A stretch of 64,000 bases of DNA, from NCBI RefSeq assembly GCF_000143415.4, contig NW_003314446.1, positions 1 through 64,000 of the forward strand. Reading direction: 5' to 3'. The DNA is from Selaginella moellendorffii (Eukaryota > Plantae > Lycopodiophyta). The first letter of the stretch is position 1; each line of letters begins with the position of its first letter. A program made the position numbers and the translations under genes. Below, piece by piece: positions 1,736 through 42,100 of the stretch. The notes under the pieces were generated by a model that worked only from the letters and a program-made list of their open reading frames with translations, searched no databases and was not told where the DNA came from.

Positions 1736-4641
1736 CTTGACCCTCACATCATCCCCTCCTCTCGGAATAATGGAAGGCCGTCAGGGGTCTCTTGTAGATG
1801 GGCCGGGATCTGGAGGAACGTCAGGAGGAGGCATTGGCGAATCTATAGATGGTATTAATTGCTCCTGATCCCTTTATATGAAGCGTTTCAACCGTTGCAC
1901 ATGCATAATCTCTGGAGGATCGGCCTGCTGGACGTCATGCCGAACCTCATAAACTTGCAGTCCAACTTGCCGCAACACCCGATACGGTCTTTTCCACTAC
2001 GCAAGGAGCCCCTTAGATAAACCACATACCGTAAGATGGGGAAAACAGACTAACACCAAATCATCCATTTTGTACTCTACAGGTGGACGATGATGGGAGT
2101 TGTAGCACCATTGTTGTCCCACTTGTACGCGGCCTAAGTGTTCGGCAGACTCTGGTCGGACAAGTGGAAGAATGCTCGTCAAATATTGATCCCAGGACCT
2201 AGTATCGGGAGCTTGTGGCAATCGCGAAGGTAAACCTAGCTCCATTGATAATATTGGATCATGACTATATAGAAGTTTATATGGTGAAGCATTAACAGAA
2301 CTCTACACCCCTGTGACATAGGCATACCGAAGAGACGGCAAATAACCATCCCAATCCGAATGCTGAAAGTTCACATACTTCGCAATCATCCCCTTGAATG
2401 TCCGAACGAGCCATTCCACCTGACCGTCTGATTGTGGATGATAAGCACTCGTGAAAGTGTGGAGTATCCCCAACCGAGACGTCAAAACATGAAATGCCTC
2501 AGCCATAAATGCGGGACCATTATCCAAAAGAATTCGCTCTAGACAAGAATGCTGGAACACCACTTGATTGAGGAGGAAGTATCCAACAGTAGTTGCAGAG
2601 GTGCTAACAAGAGCACCAACTTCTACCCAACGAGTCAAGTAGTCAGAAGCAATAATAACATATTCATTGCCTGGAAAAGGTCCTATAAGATCAAATGCCA
2701 CCAACTCAAACGGACGGGAAACTACAATTGACTCCAACCGTCCTTCCGCAGCACAAGGGGGAGTATTATGAGCTTGGCACCAAACGCAGCTACGCACATA
2801 CCGGATAACATCACGTCCCATCTCCGGCCAATAGAAAGACCTACGCAGCTTTTAGGTCACACGACGATGTCCCATATGCCCACCTAGAATAGGAGAATCA
2901 TGGTAGGCATAGAGAAACCGCGGAATAAAGACAAAAGGCACCACCAGCCGTAAATGATCATCAGGATCCGTCCCCATAAAATAAAGAAGGCCATCTTCAA
3001 GGCGATATTGAGAATGTAAATGCTGGAAAGGCAAGTCATCAGCAAGTGATGCAAGATTTTCAAACGCATCTCGAAGCCTTCGAATCCACGGCTCAATCTT
3101 TTGAGCCTCGCGAACCTCATCAAGAGAAGGTAGATCTTTCTCTACACCTTGTGGACACTATGTCAAGTACAGCCACTACCGACGGCACAGAATCCTCATC
3201 TAGAAAATCCACAGATGCTGGAACAACAGGCTCAAAAGAAATATGAGAAGAGAGTGGAAAAGGAAGAGGAGCTCAAGAAAGGGCATTAGCATCAGCCATA
3301 GAACTCCCTGGGCAATGAACAACATCAAAATCATATATCTGAAGCTTCAAAGCCCACCGCGCAGTACGACCAACCAAGTTCTTCTGCTTCAATAATGAAG
3401 TAATGGCAGCATGGTTACCTTCAAGTAATGTCCGAGAACCATGTAGATATGCATGAAGTTTCTCGAAACCCCAAATTGCCACTAAACACTCCTTCTTTGT
3501 CGTGGAGTAATTCACCTCTGCTGGTTGTAACGTATGGCTTATATATGCAATGGGATGACGTTAACCAAGCACACTTGGGCTTTCTTGCATTAATACACCT
3601 CCAAGACCAATATTAAAAGCATCTACGCACAAAATAAAAGGTTGAGTGTAGTCAGGATATGCCAAAACCGGAGGAGTCGTCAACATCTCTTTGAGATCCA
3701 CAAATGCCCGCTCACAATCAGAAGACCAGATGAAAGATGACGTTGATGACTTCAGCAACGCTCGCAACGGTGCAGTGTGATCAGAAAGATGATCCACAAA
3801 ACGACCAAGATACTACACTTTACCCAGGAAGCGCTGCACATCATTCACACACTTCGGAGTAGGGAACTTTAAAACGGCTACAAGTTTGTCAAGATCAACT
3901 TGCAAACCCTCACGAGAAATACAGTACCCAAGATAAATTGTGTCCTTGGACCCAAACACGCACTTCGATCGCTTCAGCTTTAAACCAACATCCCGTAGCT
4001 GATCCAACACGAATGTGCTCCTTCCACGTCCCCTCCGAGTGAATCAAGACATCATCAATGAAGTCAGTAGTGACCTCTGGCATATCACAAAGAACCTCAT
4101 CCATCATCTGCTGGAAAGTTGCTGGAGCATTGTTTAAACCAAACCGCATCACCAAGAACTCGTACAAACCAAACAGTGTACGAAAAGCAGTCTTAGGAAT
4201 ATCTTCTTTGGCCATCGGTACTTGCCAGTACCGAGAAGCAAGATTTAGCTTGGTGAACTAACGACTTTGCCCCAGACGATCCAAGAGATCAGCAGTGTGA
4301 GGAAGAAGGTACACATCCGGGATCGTCACGTCATTTAAGGGACGATAGTCAATGCAGAAATGAATACTCCCATCAGACTTTGTCACAAAATGAGGTTCGC
4401 ATGCCCAAGGACTCCATGACTTCCAAATAACACCCTTCTCCAACATCTCTTTGACGTTTGCACGTAAAATCTTGATCTCCTTGGGTGACCGACGACGAAC
4501 AAGTACCTTGATTGGACGAGTATTCCCGGTTGGAATCGGATAACGTGTGGCAATCTTGGCCCCAAATGATAGGTCAAATTCAAAGAGATCAGAATACTCT
4601 TTCATTAGTTTATTGAATAAGATAACACCCCCAACAAACAT
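1574..4641 (-). mobile_element. Degenerate, 5'-truncated Ty3/Gypsy LTR retrotransposon (RT, RNase H, integrase, short 3' LTR)
   Basis: Minus-strand fragments: FCIDYRPLND, KTAFRT..GLYEFLVMRFGLNNAPATFQ..FIDDVLIHS (RT); ILCVDAFNIGLGGVL, NYSTTKKECL, ADANALS (RNase H); YHDSPILGGHMG, CVWCQ, DLIGPFP, DNGPAF, YHPQSDGQVE (IN). Many stops and frameshifts. Confidence 0.92.
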
Positions 4642-4742
4642 ATTCGGTTACGATATTTATTCAAAGATTTAGTAGGACAAAAATAATGATTTTAGAATAT
4701 GAGATAAATAGGGTTTGATGTAGCACAAACAATAGAGAGGCA

Positions 4743-5795
4743 ATGTTTCCAGTGGATCTCGAGGATAGGATTCCAGCGTTATTGCATGTGAAGGCTTTGC
4801 TGCGTGCAAGATCTGTGTGCCACAGGTGGAGAGCAGTGATTGACAGTAAGGAACTTGCCAAAGCCAGTCTAGAGATTTCCAAGCAGCATCCTCTAGTCCT
4901 TGAATACACAAAAGATCGGCTACGGCACCACTGCTTGTCCTTAAGGATCTACAATCCTTTCAGTAACGACGATGCAACTGTTTTGCCACTGCCAGATCCG
5001 GATTTGCTCCTCTACTGGCAGCCCGTTGCCTCTGCCGGTGGCCTGCTTTGTTTCTCCCACCGCTTTCTTGCTGGTGCAAACAGAGGGAAGTTTGCGGTGT
5101 GGAATCCCCTCAAGCGGAGCTCATTTGTGGTGCTGCCAGGTAAATCACTCATTCAGAGATTCAAAGCAAAGATGGAAGTCTCAGCTGACGACCTCTCCTA
5201 CACGATCTACTCGCCAACAGAAAAGGGCATTGACGTGTTTAACTCGTTGTTCTGGTCGTGGCGGCGTCGTCGGGAGTATGTGCCGCCACGCGGGTGGGCC
5301 TTGTGGACAAGGTCATACCCATACACGTGGCTACTGGAGGGCAACACTGCCTACCTGGTCGGTGTGAAGAATGGCGGTCAACAGTTTGGTGTGATAGGCT
5401 ATGACTTGGGATCAAACCGGTGTTGGATCGAGCATGAGTGGAGTGCTGCTCCTGAGGCTGATAGAATGGAGTCACTCCAGGCCATTGTACGGCGTGACAA
5501 TGGTGATATGATTGTCTTTCTTTGGGATACAGGGTTTGTTTCAAGGCCTGGTAGTTTGGAGAGGGTGCACAATTTCAATTATCCTAGAGAATTCTTGTGT
5601 CCAAGGGAACAGATAACAGTTTTTACTGGGATACAACACAAGTCCCTCTACTTGTGTACAGCTTATTACAGCTTTAGGAACGTAATATTTGATTATAGGA
5701 ACAAAGAGTGGATAGAATCGGTCAGGCAAGTCAGAGAATTAGAGTCACGTCCCAAGGAGCGTTTTGTTTTACCTTTTGCTGCCACTTTGCTTTGA
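4743..5795 (+). CDS. F-box protein with C-terminal kelch/FBA-like region (350 aa, intronless)
   Basis: N-terminal F-box FPVDLEDRIPALLHVKALLRARSVCHRWRAVI; later VASAGGLLCF...FAVWNPL, typical of plant F-box/kelch proteins; uninterrupted ORF. Confidence 0.88.
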   Translation: MFPVDLEDRIPALLHVKALLRARSVCHRWRAVIDSKELAKASLEISKQHPLVLEYTKDRLRHHCLSLRIYNPFSNDDATVLPLPDPDLLLYWQPVASAGGLLCFSHRFLAGANRGKFAVWNPLKRSSFVVLPGKSLIQRFKAKMEVSADDLSYTIYSPTEKGIDVFNSLFWSWRRRREYVPPRGWALWTRSYPYTWLLEGNTAYLVGVKNGGQQFGVIGYDLGSNRCWIEHEWSAAPEADRMESLQAIVRRDNGDMIVFLWDTGFVSRPGSLERVHNFNYPREFLCPREQITVFTGIQHKSLYLCTAYYSFRNVIFDYRNKEWIESVRQVRELESRPKERFVLPFAATLL

Positions 5796-6036: not shown

Positions 6037-6314
6037 TGGGGCAGCTCTCTTCACAATCACCATCACCACTAGAATGGCTGCTTCCACTCAGAATCGATCT
6101 CTCTCCGCATCGAGCCCTAAGGGGAAAGGGGAGAAAGCGGGAAAGCATGGTTTAAAAAACCGTCCAATGGTACTGCTTCATCACACAAGGATCTCGTCTC
6201 CAGGTGCCGCCAAAGTTCTTAAGAAATGAATCGACTCTTTGGAATTCCAGGACAACTTCCAGGCTTGTGCCCAACGCGCTGGAGCTGGGAGAAGAGGCTG
6301 GGAAGGTGCAGTGA

Positions 6315-6690
6315 GCTCACTGCGAATCTCCTCGATCCTGGGATGCTCGTTATCGCCCGCTATAAACCTGTGCACCCGGTTGTCCACCTCGATCAAACTC
6401 TGCCAACCGGGATTTCTATCTTGAACTTGTCCCTCATCCGCTTCCTCGGCCTCCATGCCCGCAGCAGCATAGGAGCACGAAGAAGTGATGCTATCTGGAT
6501 CGAGCTCCGAGTATCTATCTATCCACAGCTCCCTCGGCTCGAGAGCACAATCCGACCGCTGAGAGTCGACAGCTCCCTCAAGCCCGTCATGTTCGTGAGC
6601 ACGAGAGCGCCTGCCTATGAAAATACCGAAGTTAGCCACCATGTGCGTCAAGGTGTCATAGATGAAGTAGGTTGGCAGCTTGCGGGGAGT
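6315..6690 (-). pseudogene. PPR E/E+ domain fragment (RNA-editing factor type), no DYW seen
   Basis: ELDPD...YAAAG...PGWQSLIEVDNRVHRFIAGDNEHPRIEEIRSEL matches the PG box and E+ consensus. Confidence 0.8.
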
Positions 6691-7197
6691 TTCTTGGTCG
6701 CTATCACACACAGGTAGAATTGTGCTTTGTTGATAATGGCCATAGTCATCACAGCCGACTTATAAAGAAAGAACAGCTTGATTCTCAAAACGAAAAGCTT
6801 GCCAGCTGTAGCACTAAACTAAACATTCAACCTCGGATGACTGCCTGTGGGAAGTAGCGTCCAAAGCGTTTTATCTTGCGCAGCCTGGACAGGCACAGGG
6901 AGATGACGCCCCGGTTGAGGGTCCTGTACTTGTGGCAATGTCCCAGCACTGTCTGGTACTGCAAGAGGTCCACCAGTGCTACAACGAGCTGGTGCTACTC
7001 CAGCTCCACCACCACGAGAGAGTAATCTGTCACCATGCATTTCTGCAAAACCAACGAGGAGCATAACTATAGATGCATAGAACAAGCCTGTAACATCGAT
7101 CACTGACCTTGAGGAACCGGACCTCAGCGCCGAAAAGAACCTCTCGTGGCTGCATGCCAACAGCAGGAAGTTCTTATGCACCTCAGCATCACCATAC

Positions 7198-7469
7198 CCC
7201 TTGATATCATAGCGTGCAAGCTCGTGCAGCCCAGGCATGGCGTTTGCCAACTCCATGGCAATGACGTAGTACATGCCACCTCGAGTCTGATGGATGACAA
7301 AGCCCGCAAGCATCTTCGAGAGCAGTGGCACCTTGGCCTGAGACACGTACTCGAGATACGCTGCTCCCATCTGGCCCAGGCTGCAGATATCGTAGTTGGC
7401 CACCGTCTTGAGAATGATTTTACCATTCGAGCTTTGGCTCCACTCTGCACCGATTTTTCCTGCCAGCAT
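7198..7469 (-). pseudogene. Divergent phosphatidylinositol-phosphate kinase (PIP5K/FAB1-like) domain fragment
   Basis: GKIGAEWSQSSNGKIILKTV...YLEYV...LLSKMLAGF...IAME...RYDIKG resembles the GKSGS-F..S.D..IIKT, LL.K.LG and YDLKG motifs of PIP kinases; truncated after YDIKG. Confidence 0.7.
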
Positions 7470-7475
7470 TTTGCA

Positions 7476-10475
7476 TGTGGTAGATGATAGAGAAACCAAG
7501 ACAGAAAATAATGCTTGAGTATTGATGGTGAACTCCCTCTTGGGATATATACATAAAATTTTCTTTGGTTGCACCTCAATCACATACTATGATCTTTTGT
7601 TATTTGATCCAACACTCCCCCTCAGTCTGACCTTTATTACCAAATTGTTATTCCCCTTGTGAAACCAGTTCAAGTGCTGTCTTAAGTGCTCAAACTGGCG
7701 GACTTCAAAAGTTGTCTTTGTAAGCAGATCTGTGGTCATGGTTGCTGTGGAAATGTACTTCAGCTTCACTTCCTCTCTTTCAAAATAGTGGAACATTTTG
7801 AAGTGTTTGTTCCTCTCATGGCATTGTAGGTGTGCTGTGTTGACGTTATAAACGTTCAACAATGCTTATATTTCGAAGCTAATATCCCGAAACAAATGTT
7901 TGATCCATAAAGTCTCTTTGAATGCTTCTATAACTGTGTTGTACTTGGCTTCATAGGTTGATAATGCAACCATTCTCTTTTTTTTGTCTATGCTAACAAA
8001 AAATTGCGTTAAATTTTTTGAAAACATACCCAAATGTTAATCACCGATCATCAAGATCTCCAGCAAGATTAGCATCCACCATCCCATATGATACTAGTGC
8101 TCTTGAACCAATATCTCCTTTGATCATCCCTTTGAATTTGAGATGTAGGGATGAAGTTTGGCATATGTAGTTGATGATTTGCTCCACTACATACCAATGC
8201 TTTTTGCCAGGATTCTGCATAAACTGACACACTCTAGAAACTACTGCAATGATATTTGGTCTACTCGCCATGGCCAAATACATCAATGCTCTAACCACAT
8301 TTTGATAAGGAACCTTGGCCATTTCCTTGTTCTCCCCCTTGGAAAGTGGTTGATTTGGCTTGGAAATCTTGTGATATTGTAGTGCTGGAGTTGGAACTGA
8401 AATAATGGTTTTAAGTTGGCTGGATAGGTGTTCTTAAGCTGTGGTCAAAATGGTTTCCATTAGATTTGTTCTTGCCATAGCTAATCACTTGGATATTGAG
8501 ATTGAGGAGATGGATGTTGAGAACACATTCCTCAGCCACGAATTGGAGCAGCCAGTGTATATGCAACAGCCTCTTGGTTTAAGGTTCAAGGAAAAGAACA
8601 CTTCTCAAACTTCATCGCCCTATGTATCTTAAACAGTCATGGTACAGTAAATAATTTTTTTCTGATGCTTGGCTTTTTGTGTGCAGAAGCAAATTGGAAC
8701 TTATACTGTTGTGTTAGAGAAGGCATAATCTCATCATGGCTGGAAAGACACTAAATCTTTAAAGGGTGAGAAGATCTCACTATAATTAATCCCGTCCTAT
8801 TGCATGTGTCCTTTCGCTATTAACCTTACCTTGTATCAATTAATCTCACCTGTCTACTTGTACTTCAGTTTATGTACCCACTTATAGTTTATGATGGATG
8901 CCTCATTCAATACCTCCTACAGTGAAAGGAGAGTCTATGAGTTGTTTTCCAGCTGAGCATGATATTCATTTTGCATCTCTGCCTGCCACTGAGAACATTG
9001 TCTCATCTAAGGTTGTTGGTTCATGAATTACTTATGCAATTTGAGCATGGTATCATAGGATGTCCTTGGTTTCCAAGATCTGAGATATCATCTTGGAGCC
9101 GGATTATCAGTTGGATCATCTGCAGGTTCATCATGATGTGGTGATTCAATATCACCCTCTGGATCTATATTCCCAACATCTGATTCATTACAACCTTGAA
9201 TAAAAGTACCATGTTCACCATCGGAGACAGAACAGTCTCCTTGTGATGATGGTAGTGTCCTTTCCTTGGATGGCGAAGGTAATTCCAATGGTAGCAGAGG
9301 AGGTAGATCCAAAGGTAATGATGGTGGCGTCTCTACTGGAAGCAGTGGAAAAGTTTCAGATGATGATTCATGTTCATTGAAAGTTTCATTTCCAAAGGTT
9401 AGATCCAGATGAAGAAAGTACTTGGGATCCTGTTTGTGGCTGATTGAAGAGGTAGAATATCTAGGAATGCTTTCATGAAAGAATAGTTCAAAAAATCCAA
9501 ACACAATAGCCATCTTTCGTGTTTTCACTGTAGCCTAGCATCATACACCTTGTTGAGCAATCCTCCCATTTGCTCCACTGTTCCTTCTGAGACATATGAA
9601 AAACCTACACATCCAAAAACATGTAAATATGAAAGAGAAGTATCCACATCTCATATGGTGTCTTGTTTGTTACTGTCTTTGTAGGAAGAATGTGAACTGC
9701 AATGTTTATGGCTTCAGCCCAAAAGAATGTAAGAACATTTGAGGCTTTTAGCATCGCTCTAGCTGCATTGAGGATTGTCAGCATTCTCTGCTCCACAACC
9801 CCGTTTTGGATGGCATAGAGATTTGAAGGGAAATGCCGCGTGATGAAAGGATCATCTATAATTCTTTAGAAAGATGTTCCCATCCCCCATTAACTCATAA
9901 CATGTGTAACAACACCCCGAGCTTAGTTTCAGATTGACAAATCCACTCAGTTTTAGAAATTAAACATGAGGCTTCTTTTTGATTTTGGCTTGAAGGCACA
10001 CTTTGCATGTGTCAGGGCTTGCCTCCTTCAGATCCAATATTCCAGAAGTCAATGTTAGAGTCTCTTTGATATGTTGAAAACTTGTATGTCCCAGTTGGCT
10101 ATGCCATAGCTATAACAACGAATGATCAGAAACAGAAACAGAATTCACACTTAAACTTTCTAAAGTTAGAAAATAAAGGCCATTCAAGGCCATTGCCTCA
10201 GCGAGGTGCGTATGTTAAAGGATAAAATCTGCTGTAGACTGATGAAAATATGTGTACATTCCTTGCTCTGCTAGTTTGGAGCTAGTTTTAGCACATATAA
10301 ATGTTAGAGACCTCAAGCTGGAACAAGAAAAGTAAACAGTGTTAAATGCAATAATTTGTAGACTCTCACCACTTGTTGTGCTAATAGCCACACCAATTTT
10401 TTTTTAAGTTATCTGTCAGAAGAAAGCTTTCTCCAAATTTATATGATGCGTTGCTCCGCTATCCAACAGCTAGTT
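7476..10475 (-). mobile_element. Degenerate Ty1/Copia retrotransposon (protease, IN, RT, RNase H, PPT, short 3' LTR ~7476-7614), with an internal inversion
   Basis: LLDSGATHHI (~10440-10470); ARAMLKAS...FFWAEAINIAVHI...KTPYEMW (IN); YKVRLIAKG, MDVENTFL, VPYQNVVRALMYL (RT); HERNKHF..DLLTK (RNase H); PPT GAGGGGGAG followed by TG at 7614. Confidence 0.9.
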
Positions 10476-10681
10476 CATGGATGGCCTCGACTTCGTATTC
10501 CTCTTCCCCTTGGATAACCTCAGGTAAATGTCTTACTTGGTCCTTGCGAAGCGGGTCCTCAAAATACGGCTTGAGTAAGTTCACGTGGAACACGGGATGC
10601 ATCTTCCCCATCTCTCGAGGAAGTCGGAGACGGTAAGCCACTTTACCGATTCGAGCCTCAATCTTGTAAGGCCCCGTGAAC

Positions 10682-10733
10682 CTGCTTAAGGAACTCCAGA
10701 TCAATTCATTTACAGGAATACATGCATTTTTAC
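10682..10733 (-). other. Putative 52-nt spliceosomal intron in integrase, before the GPY/F motif
   Basis: CAAAG|GTAAAAATGCATG...CCTTAAGCAG|GTTCACG; removal gives RKLTQRFTGPYKI in frame. Confidence 0.78.
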
Positions 10734-11151
10734 CTTTGGGTCAACTTCCGACTGATCCCACTTGGTAGCCTGATGTTCTTGGTGTTCAGCCACACCTTCT
10801 CCCCAGCTTGGAACTCTACGTCCCGGCGCTTTTGGTTCGCGTACTTGGTTTGCCTTTGTTGCACCCGTTCCAAGGAATCCCTCACTAGATTCCAAATGTT
10901 GAGTCTTTCTGCCGTGAATGCCTCCACTGCGGGTAGCTCTCCATGATACTCGGCCATGCCGAGTTCCATAGGACCTTCAATAGCTCGCCCATTGATGACT
11001 TCCCATGGACTCACCCCGATGCTCGAATGTGGTGAGTTGTTATAACACATTTCCGCAAGTCTCAAATGACTTACCCAATCGGTCTGGTCTCTTGAGACAT
11101 AGCATCGCAAATAATCCTCCAGCTGCCTATTCACCCTTTCTGTTTGTCCGT

Positions 11152-11197
11152 CTGTCAAGAAGTGTTAGTGCCATCAACTTGACTTAATACTCCATAC
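11152..11197 (-). other. Putative 46-nt spliceosomal intron in the integrase catalytic core
   Basis: ACAG|GTATGG...CACTAAC.ACTTCTTGACAG|AC; CTAAC branch-point motif; removal gives YHPQTDGQTERVN. Confidence 0.82.
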
Positions 11198-14100
11198 CTG
11201 TCTGTGGGTGATAGGCTGTGTTGAATTTCAACTTGGTGCGATACTGTTCTAGGAGGGTTCTTCAGAACCTACTGGTGAAGATTTTATCTCGATCTGAGAT
11301 AATCTCTTCTGGCCTTCCCCGCACTCGAACCACTTGTTCGAAGAACAACTTTGCCACACCTTCCGCATCCACTTCCGTTGTGGTGGGTATGAAATGTGCC
11401 ATCTTCAAAAATCGATCCACCACCACGAATATCGCATCAAACCCCTCGCTTGGGGGTAGTCCCGTGATGAAGTCCATCGTAAGACATTTCCACGGACGAT
11501 CTGGAATTGGGATGCTTTGCAACAAGCCCCCACTAGTCTTAGTCACGGCTTTGACCTGCTGACATGTTGGACATGTCTTTACATAGTCTTGGACATCCTT
11601 AGCCATATCTGGCCAATGATACTTCCTCTTGAGTAAGCCCATCGTCTTGGGCACTCCGCCGTGTCCCGCAAAAGGTCCGTCATGACACTCTTCTAAGGCT
11701 ACCTTCCTTAGTTCCCCTTCTGGAACATACACCCTCGTTTGCTTGTAATAGATGAGTCCGTTGCGTTCCGCATAGCCCGTTTTCTCTTCCATTGGCAGCT
11801 CACCTCTCTGGTGAGCTTCCCTTGCCTCTAGATTCCTCAGCAACACTTCTTGTACTAGCACATTGCACATCATCCTAGAAGGTTGCTGTTGCACTGGATA
11901 TCACTAACCTCAAGCTCGCTTTTCGACTTAGCGCATCCGCCACGATATTGCTCTTCCCAGGCTTGTACAGAATCTTGCAATCAAACTCGGCCAAGGCATT
12001 GGCCCACCGACCTTGTTTCCCTCTCAGATCGGGCTGTGACAAGAAGTGTTTCGTTGCCACATTGTCCATGTAAACCTTGAAGTTTCTCCCAAGGTAGTGT
12101 CGCCACTCCTTGAGCGCCTTGACCACCGCAAACAATTCCTTCTCATGGGCAGGCCACTTCCGTTGAGCCTTGTCCAACTTCTTCGAGAAGAACGCTACTG
12201 GATGGTTGTCTTGCTTCAAAACCGCGCCCAATGCAAAGTCTGAAGCATCCGTTTCTACCTCAAAGTCCTTACCAAAGTCCGGTAATGCCAACACAGGAGC
12301 CTTCCTCAACTTCTCTTTGAGGTGGACGAATGCCGCCTCGCATTCCGCTGTCCATACCATCTTCTCTTTTCCTGTTTGGTCCGTTAAGGGTAGGGCTACT
12401 CTCGAATAGTGTCTGATAAACTTTCGATAGTATTTGCATAGCCCCAAGAATGCCCTCAACTCATGTACATTCGATGGTCGCTCCCATTCCTGGATCGCTT
12501 GGACCTTCTCCGGGTCCACCTTGAGCTCGTCTTGGCCCACCACATGCCCGAGAAACTTTACCTCTTGTTGAGCAAAGTCACATTTGCTCTCTTTAGCATA
12601 CAGTTTGTGTTCCCTTAGTTTCTCAAACACCTTCGCCAAGTGTTCGGCATGCTCCTCTAGCGTCTCGCTATAGATCAGGATGTCGTCGATATAGACGACC
12701 ACAAAGTGATCCAGATAGGGTACAAAGATGTGGTTCATCAGCGCCGAAAACGTTGCCGGCGCATTGCATAGCCCGAAGGGCATCACCAGAAACTCAAAGC
12801 TCCCATACCTCGTTTGACAGGTTGTCTTCTCGACATCTTCCTTGGCTACCCTGATCTGGTAGTATCCTGACCTTAGGTCAATCCTCGAGAAGTATTTTTC
12901 CTTTCCCAACCTATCGAACAGGTCCTCAATTCTTGGCAAAGGGTACTTGTTCTTCTTTGTATACTTGTTGAGCAACCGGTAGTCTATGCACATGCGCATA
13001 GAACCATCTTTCTTTTTCACAAATAACACCGGCGCCCCATACGGCGACTTGCTCAACATAACATACCCTTTGTCCACCAACTCCTCTAGTTGGCACTTGA
13101 GCTCCTTGAGTTCTTTTTCCTTCAAACGATAGGGGGGATGAACCACCGCCTTAGCACCCTCAACCAGCTCAATCTTATGTTCTATCGGTCGTGTGGGGGG
13201 CAACCCCGCCGGTAGCTCCTCCGGCATGGTATCCTGGAATTGGTCCAACACCCACTGGATCACTAAAGGTACTTCTTCCATTCCTGTCTTTTTGTCACTT
13301 TTCACCGAGAGTAAGCACAAAAAGGCTGCCTTAGTTCCTTTAGTGAGTTGTCCTCTCGTGGACACCAGGTTTAAGCAGGAATCTTTGGCCTTGCTTTGCC
13401 CTACCTTTAGATCCTGGGCCTCCACCCTAGATCTTCTTCCTTGGGCATTCGCTAGTACCACAAGGTTTCTACCTTGTCCGTGCAGGGCTACCACGAACCG
13501 GTTGAACTAATCCATTCCGAAGATCACGTCAAATCCCGCCATGTCCAACACGGTGAAATCCATGTCTACTTTCCATGTCCCTACTTCGACTCTCGCTTGT
13601 CGAAGTACCTCATCGGTGCTTTGGCTACCTTGAACAAACTCTATAGTCCTTGGTTCGCCTAGCCGCTGCACTGTTAGTCCGGCTTTCTGGACTATGTCTG
13701 CAGCCACAAAATTATCCGAAGCACCCGTGTCAATAAGGATCTTAACAAAGCTACCTCCGAGCTTCCCTCGGAGGGCTAGTAGATGTCGCGAACAACTCTC
13801 TACCAAAGTTGCTTGTGTAATGAGTAACTTTGAGTTAGGGACTGGATCACATACCTCAATTTGGACTTCACCCGACTTGATGGCCATATTGGCTCTGGCC
13901 TTCTTTGGGTAGGGACATTCCCTCGAAAAGTGTCCCGCTTCACCGCAGTTGTAGCATACGTTGTTTCCCACGCTGCTATACAACTTGACCTTCTTATCCG
14001 TGGGTTTGTCTCTTTTCGCTTGACTCCCCCACGTACTCGCTCACTGGCCACTGGATTTGCCTTTCCGAAACCCTGATGACTCATTCTTAGAGAAACTCTT

Positions 14101-16553
14101 CTTGAATTTCCCCCTGCTATACGTTCCCCTTGGTTTGGCCCCTTTGCTAAACGTGGATCCCGAACCCGTCGTGTTCCCCTTTCGCAGGTTATCGTTGAAA
14201 TGCACCTTGATGGCCGCATCCAACGCTTCCTTGTAGTTGGTCGGGTTCCAGCGCATCACCTCACCGCGAGCCCAGGTTTGCAAACCCGATATGAAGGCAT
14301 GGAACGCATCCATATCCCCCATGTCCGTGACAAGTATCCTCTTTGCCATGAACCCATTCACATATTCCTGGATGGTTCCAATCTGCTTTAGCTTACTCAG
14401 CTCATCTCTCAGATACAGAGTGGCATTCGGAGGAACGTATGTTGCGCGGATCCTCGCCTTCATCATGTCCTAAGTGGCCACCGGTCCTTCGTTGGCCTCC
14501 GTTGTTCTCCACCAAGACTTGGCATTATCTGCCAAGTATGGTTTTGCACATGGGACCTTCTCCGAGCTCGGTAACCGCAACGCTCGGAAGTAGTCCTCCA
14601 TATCGTAAAACCAATCCTCCACCACCTTATAGTCGTGCACTCCCTTGAAGACCGGTGGGGGCTTTGGTTTATACTTGGGAACTGCCTGAGGGACTGATTC
14701 CACTTCGGTCTGTTCGACCTTGTCTGGTTTTGCCTCAGTCCCTGTCGAAGGGTCCGCACCTTCTGCGCTGCTAGCATTCGCAGTCTTTCGCTTTTTCTTC
14801 CGCTTCTCATCACACTTTAGCTTGCGTATGAGAGTCTCCAGTAGGGCATTGGTCTGCGCCAATTGTCCTTCTAGAACGTCCAATCGAGCCTTGGACGACC
14901 GAACCTCGCCACCGGACTCCTGTTTGGAAGTTTCCTCACTGGAGTCCTCCTCATGCAAGGATTCTTTGTCCATAGCCTCTTGTTCGACCGGAGGCTCTAG
15001 CTCTGGTGGAGGTTCCGTTTCCACCTAGGTTTGCTTACGCCCTGCCTTTGCCATCTCCCAGCAATCCGCCTCTATCCTTCGCTAGAATTGAGGAAAACGC
15101 TCCGATACCAAATTGTAAGCCACAAATTTTTCTTTTGCAATTTGCCAGCTTACCTCGACTATCCGTCCAACATTGCCTTGGCTTTTGCTAAGTTCCCTTG
15201 CCAAGGTTCTCGCCTATGGTACCAGCTCCTACTTGGTTTCAGCTACTCACTGCACGAGCAACGGAGTGTTAGCTATCCATCCACGGATTTCCAAATCACT
15301 CCCAATCCCCTCCCCGGGTTAGACTGGACTTAAGGTTCGGCTACACTCCCCGCAAGCACAAGCAGCCAAGCACACCAAGCTTCCAGGTTCCTAACATCCC
15401 TTGGTACCACAAGACTTGATCATGGGACCCTCTAAATCCCAAGTCTTGAGTGCAACACTTGCTTCGGGACGCCGAGGCGAAACACCATGGCCTAGCGGCC
15501 CGGTATGGGTACCTCTACCCCCCCACTTCCATCCCGAAGGAAGGCCCAAGCCCCTAGGAAGGGCAAGGACCAATGAGCCACATGGTACTCAAGTGGGGCA
15601 CCACTCCACATGAGCCGGGAGCACCGCAATCGGTTTCCCTTTCGGGAGTGGGAGCTGCTCTTGAGCACTTCCTTGGATGGCCCCTCTGGCACCAGCCAAG
15701 TCTATGCTCACTCCCACCCAAGGCCCCTCGGTCCCAGTCTCAACCTCAAGTCGGTTTGGAAGCCCCACTGGAGAGTCCCTTCAAAACTGGTTCCTGGACC
15801 TCACTATCCCTACTATACTTTTGGAACCCCCTACAGCCCCCCCCCTTGGGAGACGCACGCTTTGGGCTTTCACCCCTTGACCCGTATTAGTATTTGGACT
15901 TAGTCTCTGGCTCGATCTCGGACTCGATTTCGGATCCGACTTCCGATTCGGTCTCGGACTCGATCTCGGACCCGATCTCGAACCTGACCTCGGACTCAAC
16001 CTCGGACTCGGCCTCGGACCCGATTTCGGATCTCGGACTCCATCTCGGACTCGGTCTCGAACTCGGTCTCGAACTCGGTCCCTGAGTCGGCCTCGGACTC
16101 GATTCCAGACTCTATCTTGAACTCGGTCTCAGAGTCGGTCTTGGACTTGATCTTCGACTTGGTCCCATCCGATGAACTCTTTGTCATTTTGGTCATGCTT
16201 TCGGGGTTCCTTTAGCCTACGACACCTCGGCGAGTTGGTTCCTTACACTCAGGTCCATCTCAGACTCCATCTCGAACTCCATCTTGTATCCCATCTCAAG
16301 TCCATCTCAGACTCCATCTCAGGTCCATCTCGAACTCCATCTTGTATCCCATCTCAAGTCCATCTCAGACTCCATCTCAGGTCCATCTCGGGTCCATCCA
16401 CGTGTCATATGTTGGTCCTCTTGAGTCCCTTTTCTAAAGACTCATTTATTTCTCGCTTCGTGCTCCTTCCTTGAGCACTTTGTTAGGAGTTCCATTCCCA
16501 CTTTCAACTTTTCAAGTTGGAGCTTTTAGTCCAAACGTGTTTCACTTGTTTGG

Positions 16554-16747: not shown

Positions 16748-17159
16748 TTTGGCTTCCGCTTTGGCCACTACTACGTGGCACCCTTTTTGCTCCACTTTGA
16801 ATTTCAAGATTTGTGTCTCACAACTCCACCAGCCATAGATAAACTTTAATGTCCTCATTGAATGATAAACCATTTTATAAAGTAACTCTATTATGGATTA
16901 CCATTTTCCTTAGCACCAAGCTAATATTTGTCAATATTTCGACACCGAAGGCTCACTATCCTTTCTCATCCTTTAAGGATCATAGTCTCTCCAACTTAGA
17001 AACTCATCTAAACACCTAAACTTAGAGACACCTTTTTTATACTATTTATTCTCGAATAGTCTCAGCTTTTATCAATCTAACCACCACACTTTGGAACTTT
17101 AATTTTGACTTCTCAAGTCAATGTTTTGGGTGTTTTTAACACCTTACATTGCACATATT

Positions 17160-18631: not shown

Positions 18632-21600
18632 CTGGCGCTTGATAACAATGCTCACGACAGCATATAAAATCTATGCAAAAGCAATGGCCCTCAAACTCCA
18701 ACTGGTGATGCCGATGGTAATTAGAGAGTAGTAGATAGGTTTTGTCCCAGGAAGACAGATCGCGGAGAACATATGGACATATCTTCTCGCTTAGAGATGG
18801 GCAAATGTCTCGAATCAACATGCAGTGGCATGGCTCTTGGATTTCGAAAAGGCATATGATAGGGTGGATTGGGATTTCCTAGAGCGTTACATGGGAAGGA
18901 TTGGGCTCCCGTCTCAGATGGTGAAGAGGATTTCCCTGCTATACAGAGGAGCGTCAAGCAGGGTTGTAATCAACGGGGAGCTCGGACCGCCCTTCGAGCT
19001 GGGGAGATCTGTCCGGCAGGGATGTCCCTTGGCGCCATACTTATTCCTGATTGTGGCAGAAGCGTTGGGAGCATTCTTGACTAAGCAAGGATCAATCAAG
19101 GGACTAGTCCTCCCACAGTCTCGGGAGCAGCTCCACGGTACAGAGCAGGTGGTGCACTCCTTGTTGGATGGGGCCTTTCCAGACGATACGGCCCTATTCC
19201 TGGAAGCGTCACAGGAAAACTTAGACAAAGCGAAGGAAGGCCTGGAAAAATTCAATGTAGCGGCAGGGGCAGCCATCAACTGGAACAAGTCCGTAGGGGT
19301 TAATTGGGGAGCCTAGGGGATCGAGACATGGGGATAGTCTATAGGGTTCCAATGGTTGGCGCAAGGGGAGTCCACGAGATACCTTGGTATACAGGTAGGA
19401 GTTCATTTCCGCGCAAACACACAAGACGAAATGCTGCTGAGTCGTACCAAAACCACAATCCTCAAATGGTCACCAAGGAAACTGGGGCTACCAGCTCGAG
19501 TAGTAGTGGCAAGAAGCATAATCCTCCCGGGGATCTGGTACCACCTTTCAATATGGCCGGTGCTGGAGGCAACAATAAAGAAGCTACGTGCGATGGTCCG
19601 CACGTACGTATGGAGAGGTGCTTTGGTCTCAGGGAGGACCATGGCAAAAGTGGCGTGGCAATCGACGGCACGGCCCCGGGCACTTGGAGGGTTGGGAATA
19701 ATCGACCCGAGCGATATGGCAAAGGCGCTGAGGTATAAAGTGATTTTGTTGGGACTACAGCCAGGCCACCAACCATGGAAGCTGCTCTTCAGGCAGAGCC
19801 TCCTTTCGATTCGGCCAAAGCAGGGACCCGTAGTGCCATGGGAGGAGGACCCGCGATGGCTTTTCGCAGAGGGACAGACACAGGTTATTGGTGGCGGACC
19901 ACTCATACAAGGGATACACCGGCTCTGGAAGTCCTTCCCTCTGGACCAGGTCACTCCCACAAGGGCAGAGGACTGGCTAAACCAGCCTCTTTTCTTCAAC
20001 GCGCTGTTCAAAGAAGGCCAAACAACGTTAGGACGGGAAAGGAACCATACGATTTGGAGGCGCTTGCACCAGGGAGGTTTCCGGACACTCAAGGACTTGG
20101 TGGGCGTGGTGGATAGGAACAAGGTGGTAGCCGCTCAGAGACTTAATGCTTTCTGCACAGGGACGAGGATGAACCTCCACAGAGATCTCATTCGGCTGAT
20201 CAGGGCTACGTGCGATGCTCGCCCGGGAAAGGCTTGGCCGAGACGTAAACTCGTAAAAGGGGACTTTGTAGCACTGCAGCGCGGAACGCAAGTTGGAGGG
20301 ACTAAGGGAAAGCTGGGGCACTGGTCGCGAGCGTTCACGGCCCCCACTCCGGAGTGAAGCAATGGTGAGACTGAGGTATGGTGGGTTATCTCCCCTGGAG
20401 AGAACACCGGACGACCATTTCGGGCACTTGACAACGGGACGCTGATGGAGAGGGGAGACACACAGCAGATGCTAGACGTCAGTGATGGGGAGGTCATGGG
20501 GAGAATTCGCATCCTCCACCAAACGCCCAAGAAGGTGGAAGTTGCAGAGCTAGGCCGGAGCAGTAGCGAAACAGGGACCTTTGTTTGGTGGAGGAATCAG
20601 CTCATTGAGGAGCTAGAATGGGATCCTGCAGGGTGGAGACGTGGAACACAAGAATTTTTTGCGTATGAGGTGAAGGAAGCTCGTGACAATCTCATGGTCA
20701 ACCGGGAATTCCAACGCGAGGAGATACCAAAGTTGTGGAGGAAATGGGTCGAGCTAGGGGTAGACGCGGGGGAAGTTGTATGATTTCTGGAAGCTCCCGG
20801 TCCACGAGAAGGTAAAGGTGACATTGTGGCTAGTAGCCATAAACGGGCTCCCGGTAGGTCAGAGATTCCAGGAAGATGCAGCACGGAGATGCAGAGAATG
20901 TGGGACACTGGAGACAGTGGCACATGTCTTCTGGGAGTGCGATGTGGCGAAGGAGGTATGGAAGCAGATCTTGTGAGCCACAAAAGAACTAGGAGTCACG
21001 CAGGAGTTTGAGGTCAGGGAGGGTGATACGCTGCAGTGGTTCGAAGGAGCAAGGGGACCCCCCATGGGACCTGCTTGGAGACGGATCAAATGCTAAGGTC
21101 ACAACGGATGGGGGGTACGAGCTAGGTGGGATCCGACAGGAGCAGAGATCGGGACCACAGTATGGCAAGCAGTGGGTCATGATAGATGGGCGGTCTGGAG
21201 AGCCACGACAGTCCAGGCACTTTGGGAAGCGAGGAACCTCCACCACTTTGAAGGCAAACAGGCACGGGTTTCAGCGATCATCGCGACGTGGTGGAGGCTG
21301 TCACTAGCAGCGGTCAAGTTGAGGGATACGCTACTTAGGGAACAGGATAAATACGCGAGGATCCAGGCATGGCACAACCGGTGGTTCCCCTGCCTTGGAC
21401 AAGAGGGACCGGAAGGAGTTAAGTGGAAATGGAGGCTGCCAAATGTGATTTTACAGGCAGCATGAAGGGGGGACATAGAGCTGGACGCGATACGACGGAG
21501 ACGACTGCAGCCACTTTTACTGCAGGCCTAGTCTCACTTTAGATGAGGGAGATCCCACTAGGTAGCATGAGCTTCGGGCAGCATGCCTGGTTTTTGTATT

Positions 21601-21640: not shown

Positions 21641-22440
21641 TCGAACCCAAGCATTAAAGGGTTGGGACTCAAACCCAACCTTTGTATATGCATCTACAGA
21701 TGGCATCACCTAAGATGCCTAATGTGACTCCCTATACCGGTGCACCAACTTATACCCAAAGTGTGTTACGGATCACAACTTAGGAATTTAGTTCTTTCGA
21801 ACTGTTAAGTCCTCTCACTTGACAAATCTGTGATTATGCATAGACTCTATGTTTGGCCCCATGGGCCACCTTTTTTGAAGTCAACACCTTCAACTAGGGT
21901 CTTTGTTCCCCTGACTTGCCAATCTCGCTTAGCAAGTCACATGACCAACGTAACATAATTTCATGCATAAACATAAAAGTCTTTAACTATTGATTTTTAT
22001 TCAAAGCCATTTCTTTGAACACTCGGGAATTACTTCCCCAACCTTGACAACCTCACCTTATAGTAAGTTTCAAGACCACACTTCTGTTGCACCACTCTGA
22101 TTTTGTGTGTTCTATAAATTATTTACACTTGTCTTTCTAAGTACTAATCTACCTAGAATTGTCCTTGGGAACCTTAAAGAGACTCTATCCTTTAGCTTGC
22201 TAAGGTTTTTTTTTTGCAAGCCTTCTAATTGCTATATGGTCTAATATGGATAATTCCATATTTTAGACTTTCCATAGCATCACGGTTGTTAATTATAACA
22301 CTTTCGAGCATTCACTTGATTCTTCACTCCCAACTTGCATAACCACATTGACTATGTCTTTCAATTCTTATGGTTCAATTCTATCCCTTTACTATTTACT
22401 TTTGGCCTTACGCCTTCCTTTTAATTATTCTCCTCATGAC

Positions 22441-23542
22441 TGTAAGCAACTAAATTTTCCATTCTACTTTAGTCACTTAACCACACCTTTGACCACTTGG
22501 AAGAGTCTCATTCACAACCTCCATAAGTCCAATCCAGGACTTGGGACTTGCTAGCCCCGAGAATGGCATCCATGCCACTCAACATTTGCACTTGGTCCAA
22601 GTGCTCCACGTGTCCGATCCCATGACCGACACTCAAAGGTACCACCGACATAGCAGCCCGTTACGCTAAGGCCATGCCCAATCACCTTTGCCACACTGGT
22701 AGTCCAATACCACTTGCATCACCGTCTTGGCTCTCCAAGACTAGGCAAACCATCCGTGAGTGGTCATCTCAGATCCACTCCTTAGCATCCTTAGGATGCC
22801 CACCGACAAGGGGAATAGCCTTCCCCAATATCCCTCTGTCAGTCCCCACTAAGTCCCTTTCTGCCCCTGGCCGTGTTTGCCAACACTGCCACTGGATCGA
22901 GACCCACAGGCCCGACCACTAAGTCCCACGGTCCTCTGGGACTTCCTCACCACACGACTGTGTCCTTGGTCACTACCCCAGAGGACTGCTCCTCTTCCTT
23001 TCCACAGTCTGGGCCTTTGGGACAACATTTCGGAACACCGTGGCCTTACGCGAGCCACCTAGGTACTCTCCTCGCCTTCTGTCCTTGGGTGCTCTAGCCA
23101 TGGGCTTAGAGCGGGTTCCGTTGAGCCACACCAGGTATCCAAGTAGGTAGTGCCACCCACACTTGGACTGGGAGCATCGGCCAGTCGATCTCCCTGGGGA
23201 ACTAGAGCCGGCTCTTGAACACTTCACCAAGCTACCCCGCTTGTCGGTCTGTGTTCACTCTAGTCTTGGACTTCCCAGTGGGCAGCTCATCACCCAACAC
23301 TGGGTCCGGCCTTCCTGGGCCAAACTGGCCTTTCCTGGCCAAACTGGCTCCACTGCAGTCCTCCCCCTACTATACTTTTGGAGCTCACCAAACCCCCCAG
23401 GGTCTGGGAGACGAACGCTTTGGGCTTTCACCCTCTCAGGCTCCGGACTCGGACTCGGACTCGGACTCGGACTCGGATTCGGACTCGGACTCGGGCTCGG
23501 GCTCGGTCTCGGGCTCGGGCTCGGTCTCGGTCTCGGTCCCGA

Positions 23543-23580
<38 letters not shown>

Positions 23581-26500
23581 CCGGTCTCGGTCCCGGTCTC
23601 GGTCTCGACTTCGGACTCCATCTCGGACTCCATCTCGGACTCCATCTCGGGTCCATCTCGGGTCCATCTCGGACTCCATCTTGGACTCCATCTCGGGTCC
23701 ATCTCGGACTCCATCTCGGACTCCATTTCGGGTCCATCTCGGACTCCATCTCGGACTCCATTTCGGGTCCATCTCGGGTCCACCTCGGACTCCATCTCGG
23801 ACTCCATCTCGGACTCTATCTCGGGTCCATCTCGGACTCCACTTCGGACTCCAACTCGGGTCCATCTCGGGTCCACCTCGGACTCCACTTCGGACTCCAA
23901 CTCGGGTCCATCTCAGACTCCACTTCGGACTCCAACTCGGGTCCATCTCGGACTCCACTTCGGACTCCAACTCGAGTCCATCTCGGACACTCCCACGTGT
24001 CATGTGTTGGTCCTTTTGGGTCCCTTTTGGGAGCCTCGCCTTTTGCTCGCTTCGTGCTCGTTCCTCGAGCACTTCGTTGGGAGTTCCACTCCCGCTCTTG
24101 ACTTTTCAAGTTGGAGCTTTTGGTCCAAATGTGTTACGCTCGTTTGGCTCTCGCTTCGGCCATTACCATGTGGCGCCCTTCTAGCTCCACTTTGGGGCCT
24201 AGGGATTTTGTGTCTCACAACTCCACCACCCATAGACGAAGTTCGATGTCCTCATCGAACGGTAAACCATTTTGTAAAGTAACACTCGCGTGTGTTACCA
24301 TTTCCATCCTTGGCACCTAGCCAATATTTGTCAATGGTTTGACATTGAAGGCTCACCATGCCTTCTCCATATTCGTCAATGGTTTGACATTGAAGGCTCA
24401 CCATGCCTTTTGCATATGCCTCCATGGTTTGACACCAAAGGCTCACCATGCCTTGCCTATCTTCTAAGGAGGGTAGTCTCTCCAACTTAGAGACTGATTG
24501 GACCACATGTAGTGGTTCTCTCCTTTTATTGGTTTAGTCCTCGCTAAACCTCTTAGAGACCCTTCTCTAAGTCAATCCCACTACTCCTTCTCGAGTAGTC
24601 TCAATTTCCATCGATATAACCTTTGCACTTTGGAACTTTGAATTTTGACTTCTTGGAGTCAATTTCCTAGGTGTCTCCGACACCTTGCCTTGCACCTTTT
24701 TGTGCAACTCCACTTCCCATCCTAGGAAGTTCTCTACTCAAGGGCACCATCATCCTCTCTTCTATTTTGTGCCAAAGTTCCAGTTATCATACTTTGTGCT
24801 AGGGCTGTTCATGGCCCTATCATTTGGCTACCTTACCGCTCCCTCCCTTGGAGCTTCCACTTTTGCCAAATCGGAGCATTTCGGAATCCCTCCTTGGAAA
24901 CACACTTCCTTTCCCGCAACTTGTTAGCATCCAACACATTAGTGTTCCTCGCCTAACTTTGTCACTTGGATTCCTTCCAAGGGATTCCACGGCCCTATCT
25001 TGGCCACTCATCTTTTGCTCCTATCCATTGATTGTTGCACCAAGCAACATCGAATCTCTACCTCCCTCCTTGAGGTATTGTTTCGGTTCCATAGCAAAGA
25101 CTCTTCTTTGCCAAGTCCGGAGGATGTTCACCCCTAGTACGTCTCTTTAGCATCTTTTGCTATGGGCTCTATCCACGGCCCAACTTCGTGACCCTCCCAT
25201 GGGTCTTTTATAGAGACTACTTTCCTCGGACTCACTATGCCATCGCACGGACATAGTTTATTTCCCTTAGGTGCTCTTCCCACTTGGTCATCACGACCAA
25301 GCCACACCACCTTAAACAGTTCAATTTCAACATTTTGAACCAGGAACTTCATTCCTTAGCCAACCAAGGACCTTGTCCTTATCTGGCCATAAGATCACCT
25401 AGTGATCTCACCTTGGCACCTTAACAGAGTTGCCAAGAGGTACTTGGTCTTCTAGACCTCCAAGTTGTTGACTATAACCCCGGGGGCATCCCCCACACTT
25501 GGCGGTGCACCCAAGCCAGCCCTTACGGCAAAGGGTTCATAGCAACTGAGATTAGGTGTCCCCATCTCACTCACCACGACCTTGGTGCCACTTGCACCAA
25601 AGCGTTCAAGTTAGATATGCCGAGCTTTCACTCTAAGCAATCTAACCGTGCATCACGACTCCGAGGCATCCCTCGCTTGGCGGTGTGCCCAAACCAGTCT
25701 CCCCACTGAGAGTCCATGACCACCGAAATATGAGTGTCCTCATATTCCAAACCATCACCACGCCCTAGTGATTTGGGACTCGAACCCAAGCACTAGAGGG
25801 TCGGGACTCGAACCCAACCTCCGTATATGCATCTACGGACGGCATCACACAAGATGCCTGGCGTGACTCCCCACGCCGGTGCACCAACTTATTTTTAAAG
25901 CGCGCTACAGATCACAGCTTAGGAACCTAGTTCCTCCACACTGCCAAGTCCTCTCACTTGACATGTCTGTGATCATGCATGGACTCCTCCATGCTCGGCC
26001 CCATGGCCCACCCTTTTTGAAGTTATCACCTTCAACTAGGGTATTTGTTCCCCTGACGTGCCAATCTCGCTTGGCAAGTTCTCCGACCACTGTAACATGG
26101 TTCCTGCATAAGCATGAAAGTCCTTGACCATCGACTTTCGTTCAAAGCCCTCTCTTTGAACACTCGGGAACTACTTCCCTAACCTTGATAGCCTTGCCTC
26201 ATGGCAAGCTTCAAGACCACGCTTCTGCTGCGCCACTCTGATTTCGCGCGTTCCATGAACCATTTACACTTGGCCTTTCTAGGTACTAAGCTACCTAGAA
26301 TCGTCTTTGGGAACCTTGAAGGAACTCTGTCCCTCAGCTTGCTAAGGCCTCCCTTTTGCAAGCCTTCCAAATGCCACATAGTCTAACATGGACAATTCCA
26401 TAACTTAGACTCTCCATGGCATCACGGTTGCTAGCGGCAACACCCTCGAGCCCCCACTTGATTCCCCACTCCCAGCTGGCATAACCAACCTTGGTTATGC

Positions 26501-29469: not shown

Positions 29470-29519
<50 letters not shown>

Positions 29520-30181
29520 CCGGTCTCGGTCCCGGTCTCGGTCTCGACTTCGGACTCCATCTCGGACTCCATCTCGGACTCCATCTCGGGTCCATCTCGG
29601 GTCCATCTCGGACTCCATCTTGGACTCCATCTCGGGTCCATCTCGGACTCCATCTTGGACTCCATCTCGGGTCCATCTCGGACTCCATTTCGGGTCCATC
29701 TCGGACTCCATCTCGGACTCCATTTCGGGTCCATCTCGGGTCCACCTCGGACTCCATCTCGGACTCCATCTCGGACTCTATCTCGGGTCCATCTCGGACT
29801 CCACTTCGGACTCCAACTCGGGTCCATCTCGGGTCCACCTCGGACTCCACTTCGGACTCCAACTCGGGTCCATCTCAGACTCCACTTCGGACTCCAACTC
29901 GGGTCCATCTCGGACTCCACTTCGGACTCCAACTCGAGTCCATCTCGGACACTCCCACGTGTCATGTGTTGGTCCTTTTGGGTCCCTTTTGGGAGCCTCG
30001 CCTTTTGCTCGCTTCGTGCTCGTTCCTCGAGCACTTCGTTGGGAGTTCCACTCCCGCTCTTGACTTTTCAAGTTGGAGCTTTTGGTCCAAACGTGTTACG
30101 CTCGTTTGGCTCTCGCTTCGGCCATTACCATGTGGCGCCCTTCTAGCTCCACTTTGGGGCCTAGGGATTTTGTGTCTCACA
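22441..30181 (-). mobile_element. Young full-length non-autonomous LTR element (LARD-like Gypsy derivative)
   Basis: LTRs 22441-24219 and 28362-30181 are near-identical apart from repeat-copy number; TSD ATGAC on both sides; PBS TGGTATCGGAGC ending at 28358; PPT GGGTGGTGGAGT next to 24219; the 4.1-kb interior has no long ORF, only eroded gag/pol-like traces. Confidence 0.93.
23443..23990. repeat. GC-rich 6/12-bp tandem array (CTCGGA, CTCGGT, CTCGGACTCCAT, CTCGGGTCCAT) inside the LTR
   Basis: Directly visible; equivalents at ~29363-29950, ~15910-16150, ~16248-16400, ~47130-47300 and ~56850-57165. Confidence 0.95.
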
Positions 30182-37576: not shown

Positions 37577-37676
37577 NNNNNNNNNNNNNNNNNNNNNNNN
37601 NNNNNNNNNNNNNNNNNNNNNNNNNNNNNNNNNNNNNNNNNNNNNNNNNNNNNNNNNNNNNNNNNNNNNNNNNNNN
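37577..37676. other. Assembly gap (100 N)
   Basis: Run of N. Confidence 1.
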
Positions 37677-38991: not shown

Positions 38992-39055
38992 CACGTGGCA
39001 TGGACACATGGCATGTGGACACGTGGCATGTGACACGTGGCATCTGTCACGTGGC
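38992..39055 (+). promoter_or_regulatory. Cluster of G-box/ABRE motifs (CACGTGGC x4) in the Copia-type LTR
   Basis: Perfect copies at 38992, 39020, 39034 and 39048; also present at ~46667-46731 and inverted at ~37225-37290. Function not shown. Confidence 0.6.
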
Positions 39056-42000: not shown

Positions 42001-42100
42001 GCATTTGCTAGTTAGCAATTGTATTGACGTTCAAATAAACTAAATTACAAGTTTGAGTTAGTTGTGTTCTAGACAGGATTATTTAGTAGGGGTTAAGCTT

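Follow-up and report, generated by a model that had tools for sequence, protein, structure and literature searches.

Two likely introns inside the integrase of a high-copy chromovirus family of Selaginella moellendorffii

Introduction

How could a retrotransposon make its integrase if the coding sequence of the catalytic core were broken by an insert that carries a stop codon? This question is raised by a Ty3/gypsy element in the first 64,000 nucleotides of contig NW_003314446.1 of Selaginella moellendorffii, a stretch that we refer to as the window. A 46-nt insert, bounded by splice-like signals, separates the first two catalytic residues of the element's integrase from the third. Introns are not expected at such a place. 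In the portion of PMC12786077 available to us, the loss of introns through passage via RNA is described as founding evidence for retrotransposition, and Ogre and EVADE are named as the exceptions among plant LTR elements, which otherwise are stated to have no introns. Here we describe the element and its inserts, their distribution among other copies and the RNA reads that cover them, and we discuss what they may mean for the supply of integrase.

Results

Anatomy of the element and state of this copy

The element lies on the minus strand and consists of the following parts, in the order of its transcription.

15114..16247, minus strand: 5' LTR, TG...CA, with a poly-G tract at 15845 and a firm 3' end
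15098..15110, minus strand: primer-binding site of 13 nt, which we take to be of the tRNA-Met type, as published for SM1-Galahad
11198..15054, minus strand: predicted coding part of exon 1, with Gag (zf-CCHC), protease, reverse transcriptase, RNase H, the integrase zinc finger and the first two catalytic Asp residues
11152..11197, minus strand: predicted intron 1, 46 nt, GT..AG, phase 1
10734..11151, minus strand: predicted exon 2, 418 nt, open, with the catalytic Glu at 11138-11140 and the remaining integrase core
10682..10733, minus strand: predicted intron 2, 52 nt, GT..AG, phase 2, 35% GC
10480..10681, minus strand: predicted exon 3, with the SH3/GPY-F region and the start of the chromodomain, cut off in this copy at 10480

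The 5' start of the LTR is uncertain, as position 16247 gives a length of 1134 bp and related LTRs in the window suggest that a start near 16820 is possible. Pfam domains for Gag, the zinc knuckle, protease, reverse transcriptase (RT), RNase H (RH), the integrase (IN) zinc finger, the integrase core and SH3 follow one another in gypsy order. The element thus has the Gag-PR-RT-RH-IN arrangement of Ty3/gypsy chromoviruses (PR, protease), together with a D,D-35-E core related to the integrase of Ty3. Regarding the chromodomain, this copy stops at 10480 after the residues EEEYEVEAI, 45 contigs extend past that point, and the best homologues of exon 2 contain PF00385.

The copy at 10480-16247 is dead. 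Six stops lie in frame within its exon 1, which is also 17 nt short near 11860, and the element is truncated at 10480. At least one of the stops, at 11262, is private to this copy, with 99.5% of the depth differing there. What looked like a third intron, at about 11855-11908, was rejected; because other copies differ at the would-be donor and are longer there, it represents a private lesion. Substitutions tell a similar story of private change: for 29 of the 40 listed sites (those in 10480-11822, excluding 11822 itself), 26 are exonic, 11 being synonymous and 15 not, and since they are mostly private to this copy they have no bearing on selection. Identity to 13 homologues is 37-45% in exon 2, 37-62% in exon 3 and 35-54% in RT and RNase H. 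Conservation downstream of the premature stop is thus on a par with that of RT and RNase H, which fits continued selection.

An insert in the catalytic core

Intron 1 interrupts the integrase in the motif YHPQT-D-GQTE, where it divides the Asp codon between its first and second bases, four residues ahead of the catalytic Glu. Its ends are a GT donor and a CAG acceptor, and a short run of pyrimidines is present. The insert is flanked by a direct repeat of 5 nt, GACAG, and contains two further features.

11164-11168, minus strand: CTAAC, branch-point-like, a putative branch point
11184-11186, minus strand: TAA, in frame, closing the unspliced ORF at 1295 codons

A preliminary description of this DNA, made from the letters alone, had already proposed a spliceosomal intron here, and its coordinates, donor, CTAAC, pyrimidine run, acceptor and G+C count (18/46) are all exact, as is the stop that it placed ahead of the Glu in unspliced RNA. 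Its remark that the insert is AT-richer than its surroundings is right in direction, the difference being only mild (39% G+C in the insert, 44% and 47% in its flanks of 100 nt).

The same description held that splicing restores the YHPQT-D-GQTE motif, and this is borne out by protein comparison. In a protein-anchored scan with 10 homologues, the 46-nt cut is the top joint among 468 open cut pairs, and removal of the intron brings the computed D-35-E spacing back. Owing to the 5-nt repeat the cut can be slid to six equivalent placements, only one of which is bounded by GT..AG, as a U2-type spliceosomal intron would be; the chance background for GT..AG at a random 46-nt span of the element is 33/4529 positions (0.7%). 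When the exons are aligned to the integrase of Ty3 (PDB 7Q5B, the best PDB match), residue 1267 is the last one matched by exon 1 and residue 1269 the first one matched by exon 2, so that exactly one split codon lies between them. Of the homologues in which the motif is present and followed by five or more residues, most are contiguous at this junction (D/N-G-x-x-E), namely 63/70 and 116/121 in two sets.

The length of the insert had been likened to host introns of 52-53 nt in the window. Host-intron candidates in a decayed PIP5K-like gene, of 48 and 65 nt, gave no clean reading, and the 52-nt intron found in the window belongs to the element itself and not to a host gene. The available part of PMC5310277 gives a mean intron length of 285 bp overall and of 106 bp for retained introns.

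A second insert in the SH3 region

Intron 2 splits the Arg codon of KLTQ-R-FTGPYK in the SH3 GPY/F region and has a 4-nt direct repeat on both sides. Its 52-nt length is favored by the homologues in the protein-anchored scan. The chosen placement is the best of six GT..AG options, with a score of 87.9 against 90.8 for the top non-canonical slide, and GT..AG bounds a random 52-nt span of the element at 23/4523 positions (0.5%).

The two introns show no likeness to each other or to any other part of the 64-kb window, and neither has an Rfam match. Both insert regions fold no better than shuffled sequences (z of +0.30 and +1.56 for introns 1 and 2), with no hairpin. The intron pattern had 0 hits in viral contigs, and a search of phages gave no match.

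These data also speak to recoding as an explanation, in which the ribosome would hop between the direct repeats at each insert, as it does in phage T4 gene 60. The repeats do supply a codon for take-off and a matching one for landing (spaced by 46 and 52 nt, the second directly followed by TAA). However, the repeats are largely a product of the splice consensus, the regions lack any excess of folding over shuffles, and one RNA read (see below) is without insert 1, so we regard hopping as very improbable.

Correspondence with SM1-Galahad

Novikov et al. 2012 (PMC3350952) described SM1-Galahad from Selaginella moellendorffii as a family with hundreds of copies that share about 95% identity. Its LTRs exceed 1 kb (1076/1146 bp), are bounded by TG..CA and contain a poly-G tract of 11-25 nt; they are accompanied by a 13-bp primer-binding site (PMC3350952). 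Downstream of the main ORF of 3885 bp (1295 aa), which ends in the core integrase, come two short ORFs, one of 316 bp and then one of 309 bp that holds the chromodomain; no intact copy was found by the original authors (PMC3350952).

The element described here agrees with this account in host, copy number, LTR, primer-binding site, ORF length and downstream ORFs. From the ATG at 15054 to the TAA of intron 1 there are 3871 nt, which become 3888 nt, or 1295 codons plus a stop, when the missing 17 nt are added and no further indel in gag-pol is assumed. The second ORF of this copy runs for 321 nt from the ATG at 11050 to its stop (published 316 bp), and the third begins at 10611 and is truncated here (published 309 bp). 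The LTR of more than 1 kb, the primer-binding site and the high copy number correspond as well, and the poly-G tract of this copy is 9 nt long (published 11-25). We conclude that the element is likely SM1-Galahad, as matched by description, ORF lengths and features and not by consensus sequence, and we take the published ORF, “ORF2” and “ORF3” to be exons 1, 2 and 3. The original paper treated these pieces as separate ORFs, whereas we read them as exons; neither “intron” nor “splic” occurs in its main text, and “intron” does not occur in its supplement (PMC3350952).

The closest published sister is SM2-Galahad, which has the same domain order and a group I chromodomain. In contrast to the split element, it has a single uninterrupted ORF of 4731 bp, and hence it is without the inserts. 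Our protein searches returned neither a family member nor a gene model with spliced exons; the best matches were of 55% and 49%. In a metagenome scan, 11 loci gave distant partial matches (37-61% over short stretches), among which the intact junction-1 motif was absent.

Both inserts are family-wide

If the inserts had arisen in this copy after its insertion, or were an artefact of assembly, other copies should not contain them. Contigs from two DNA sequencing runs were aligned to positions 10400-12100 (18,527 from run X1 and 388 from run X4). Those listed at intron-1 sites number 62-63 in X1 and 3-7 in X4, and those at an intron-2 site 84 and 1, respectively. Both inserts are thus family-wide. 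Among the best 15 of 20 joints, which extend down to single contigs, none skips either insert (46 or 52 nt). Other copies, as seen from loose ends of the alignments, differ near the donor of intron 1 and yet keep its GT. Listed indels over the 1701 nt number three, all within intron 1 (11174-11177) and none in exons 2-3, and may reflect one event.

This copy does have many private lesions, as would suit a private gain. Because contigs of other copies cover both inserts, and because the published consensus ORF ends at the stop of intron 1 and shows the same three-ORF layout, gain in this copy alone, which the preliminary description had left as one of two readings, is refuted, and we give next to no credence to a private insert or an assembly artefact.

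Coverage drops inside intron 1, with a depth of 316-347 thousand at the sites listed there and of 444-806 thousand at exon sites close by; divergence of this copy can explain the difference. There may be a small minority of intron-less copies, given that the joints are the best 15 of 20 and that there are 234 substitution entries beyond those listed.

An RNA read that appears to skip intron 1

About 12% of each of two raw RNA runs, X21 and X22, was searched, amounting to some 2.8 Gb of letters in total. Five reads from X21 and two from X22 aligned, and seven reads from such a volume indicate that the family is barely expressed in these samples. No RNA joint reached the three reads at which splice joints are listed. 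A search of sequencing runs returned no matching run recorded as RNA.

Evidence on intron 1 comes from the depth profile of a single read.

11048..11243, no strand assigned: footprint of one 150-nt X21 read, resolved by depth bins into 11048-11151 and about 11198-11243

Over the four 57-nt bins of this block the depth is 0.63, 1, 0.19 and 0.81, or 36 + 57 + 11 + 46 = 150 nt, which is the read length; the remaining X21 blocks account for the other four reads. An unspliced read would be expected to give 0.63, 1, 1 and 0. X21 covers positions 11062, 11092, 11141 and 11221 but not 11191 or 11193. The skips that fit the bins are of 46 to 57 nt and end at the acceptor, and the sole GT in the corresponding range is that at 11197. 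One of the five X21 reads is therefore likely without intron 1, as deduced from rounded depth bins and below the three-read threshold.

Because the RNA and DNA samples differ, this read could also come from an intron-less genomic copy. A rare intron-less subfamily might then be the source of both the integrase and the “spliced” read, the intron-bearing majority being passengers. The lower depth in intron 1 and the restriction of the joint data to the best 15 of 20 agree with such a subfamily. Against it, those joints include single contigs and still contain no 46- or 52-nt skip, the published consensus has both breaks, and the splice signals of the inserts would be left unaccounted for. We find this subfamily distinctly improbable, and prefer to read the X21 footprint as a product of splicing.

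None of the seven RNA reads is spliced at intron 2. Three of them, one from X21 and two from X22, extend 25 nt into intron 2 and then leave the reference. Judging from the depth bins, these partial reads seem to end alike at 10709 and to continue into unlike sequence, and a loose end in the DNA data lies at 10728. The ending at 10709 possibly marks a rearranged expressed copy or a divergent type of intron 2.

Discussion

A proposed splicing-gated integrase

We propose that this chromovirus family has two likely host-spliced introns, that its integrase comes only from spliced RNA, and that its new copies likely derive from RNA that retains the introns, a reading that we hold to be reasonably probable. 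Three things shown by the data underlie it: the anatomy of the element, the family-wide occurrence of the two inserts and a single RNA read without intron 1. Hypothetically, unspliced RNA would direct the synthesis of Gag, PR, RT, RH and an integrase devoid of the catalytic Glu, SH3 and chromodomain, and would also serve as the genome. A minor, doubly spliced fraction would encode the whole polyprotein, with an integrase dose far below that of Gag and RT. Spliced RNA would mostly go to translation and be under-packaged, which is how PMC12786077 describes the spliced gag RNA of EVADE, or would be too rare to found copies. The introns themselves would have arisen in the DNA of an ancestral master copy, through gain at AG|G-type sites accompanied by a short duplication. 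The direct repeats at both introns fit a gain of this kind, and much of each repeat is the splice consensus itself. A family-level, splicing-gated integrase was also one of the two readings in the preliminary description, which had not noticed the second intron, the published family or its single-ORF sister as a possible source of integrase in trans; the family-wide insert and the read that skips intron 1 uphold part of it, and the supply of integrase through splicing is something that we still infer.

Both introns persist in the genomic copies, and reverse transcription must therefore draw mostly on unspliced RNA. Spliced RNA keeps the LTRs and the primer-binding site and should therefore found intron-less copies, even a lineage that takes over, which counts against the proposal unless such RNA is excluded by a mechanism that the proposal does not itself supply. 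For an autonomous element that obtains integrase only after removal of two introns of about 50 nt, and that actively sorts its RNA so that only the intron-retaining form is copied, we would put the chances at even. If this is true, splicing would be a checkpoint on integration itself, uncoupled from reverse transcription.

The main rival holds that SM1-Galahad is non-autonomous for integrase. According to this explanation the inserts disabled the gene, integrase is borrowed from SM2-Galahad, and splicing is incidental. SM2-Galahad would be a suitable lender, having hundreds of copies, an intact ORF and near-identical LTRs, whereas no intact SM1 copy was found (PMC3350952). The very low expression of SM1 agrees with borrowing, and mobilization in trans within the Selaginella genome is shown by the pol-less element at 22431-30179, which has the same LTR end and primer-binding site. 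It is difficult to reconcile with borrowing, however, that there are two separate inserts, both with GT..AG exactly at the codon-restoring position (against the backgrounds of 0.7% and 0.5%), that exons 2 and 3 are still open and conserved, and that one RNA read is without intron 1. Borrowing is unlikely in our estimation, and a splicing-gated integrase remains the reading that we favor.

Comparison with known systems

The closest working model is Ogre, whose genomic copies retain an intron that is removed from part of the transcripts for the production of downstream enzymes. Ogre is a non-chromovirus, and its one intron of about 274 bp is a spacer between domains (PR-RT) that gates RT, RH and IN together, whereas the present element has two likely introns, each about 50 nt long and within a codon of the integrase, and its RT would need no splicing. 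PR and RT are collinear here, unlike in Ogre, and the element thus works like Ogre but is not Ogre. Foamy viruses obtain their pol enzymes from a spliced RNA and use the unspliced RNA as genome; theirs is a subgenomic RNA that loses gag, and not one freed of small introns within a catalytic domain.

Among the Ty1/copia elements EVADE and BARE1, splicing to a short gag RNA sets the protein ratio, and the spliced RNA is found preferentially on polysomes, according to the part of PMC12786077 at hand. Splicing there removes coding sequence and truncates the product, and the unspliced RNA encodes all enzymes, whereas here splicing would restore an enzyme. Penelope-like elements keep introns through retrotransposition but are not LTR elements and have no integrase, and the intron of the characterized ones is in the 5' UTR (PMC8557442, available portion). 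A survey of introners, elements that turn into introns, makes no mention of Selaginella in the portion available (PMC12130899). Of the features of introners, neither sequence likeness, between the two introns or with the rest of the 64 kb, nor a hairpin was found.

The two-intron architecture is real, family-wide and in a known family, and has apparently escaped recognition in the literature. A search that did not extend to Repbase, the Selaginella genome paper or most subscription papers turned up no account of an intron within the integrase of a gypsy element or within SM1-Galahad. PMC2864245, PMC9289625 and PMC13469084 contain nothing on gypsy integrase introns in the portions available, and “Selaginella” is absent from the text of the REXdb supplement, from which the large tables are probably separate.

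The messenger and the genomic RNA of such a family would differ by 98 nt and share LTRs and primer-binding site, so that the family would need a way to tell them apart. This makes the sorting of RNA in retroelement particles testable with a natural tag that can be read by sequencing. If our reading is true, an LTR element would also be seen to have gained introns, with a sister of one ORF to compare it with, and a major repeat of Selaginella would have its annotation corrected. Families of this kind would be missed by pipelines that demand one open integrase frame, and more may consequently be hidden.

Other features of the window

A full-length element occupies 22431-30179 on the minus strand, with LTRs of about 1.8 kb that are 97.6% identical, including 41 gap positions, and a 5-bp target duplication, GTCAT. 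It shares the LTR 3' end and the primer-binding-site type of the intron-bearing element and has no pol match. We take it for a young non-autonomous partner in need of a Galahad-type integrase. The LTRs of these related elements contain tandem arrays of 12-bp and 23-bp units, at 15880-16400, 23370-24010, 29290-29970 and 56850-57250, which give long low-complexity ORFs in several frames; these are probably not genes.

A second, degraded gypsy family is present at 1900-4650 (minus strand) and 54800-58850 (plus strand), and its YHPQSDGQVE motif at 2443 is uninterrupted and serves as an internal control. Decayed relics resembling Ty1/copia and LINE elements, as judged from translations, flank the intron-bearing element at 7600-10000 (minus strand) and 18800-21500 (plus strand). 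Host genes and relics at 4734-5795 (plus), 6181-7586 (minus) and 50289-50654 (minus) include an F-box gene, a PPR E+ fragment, the decayed PIP5K-like gene and a PLAT/ATS3 exon. A plasmid search with the host PLAT protein gave no match. The F-box gene is 95% identical to SELMODRAFT_426888 of Selaginella moellendorffii. Finally, the region 33800-42500 contains large nested inverted repeats, with one pair of arms 1297 nt long at 99% identity and further arms at 87-92%; these arms are copies of another repeat in opposed orientation.
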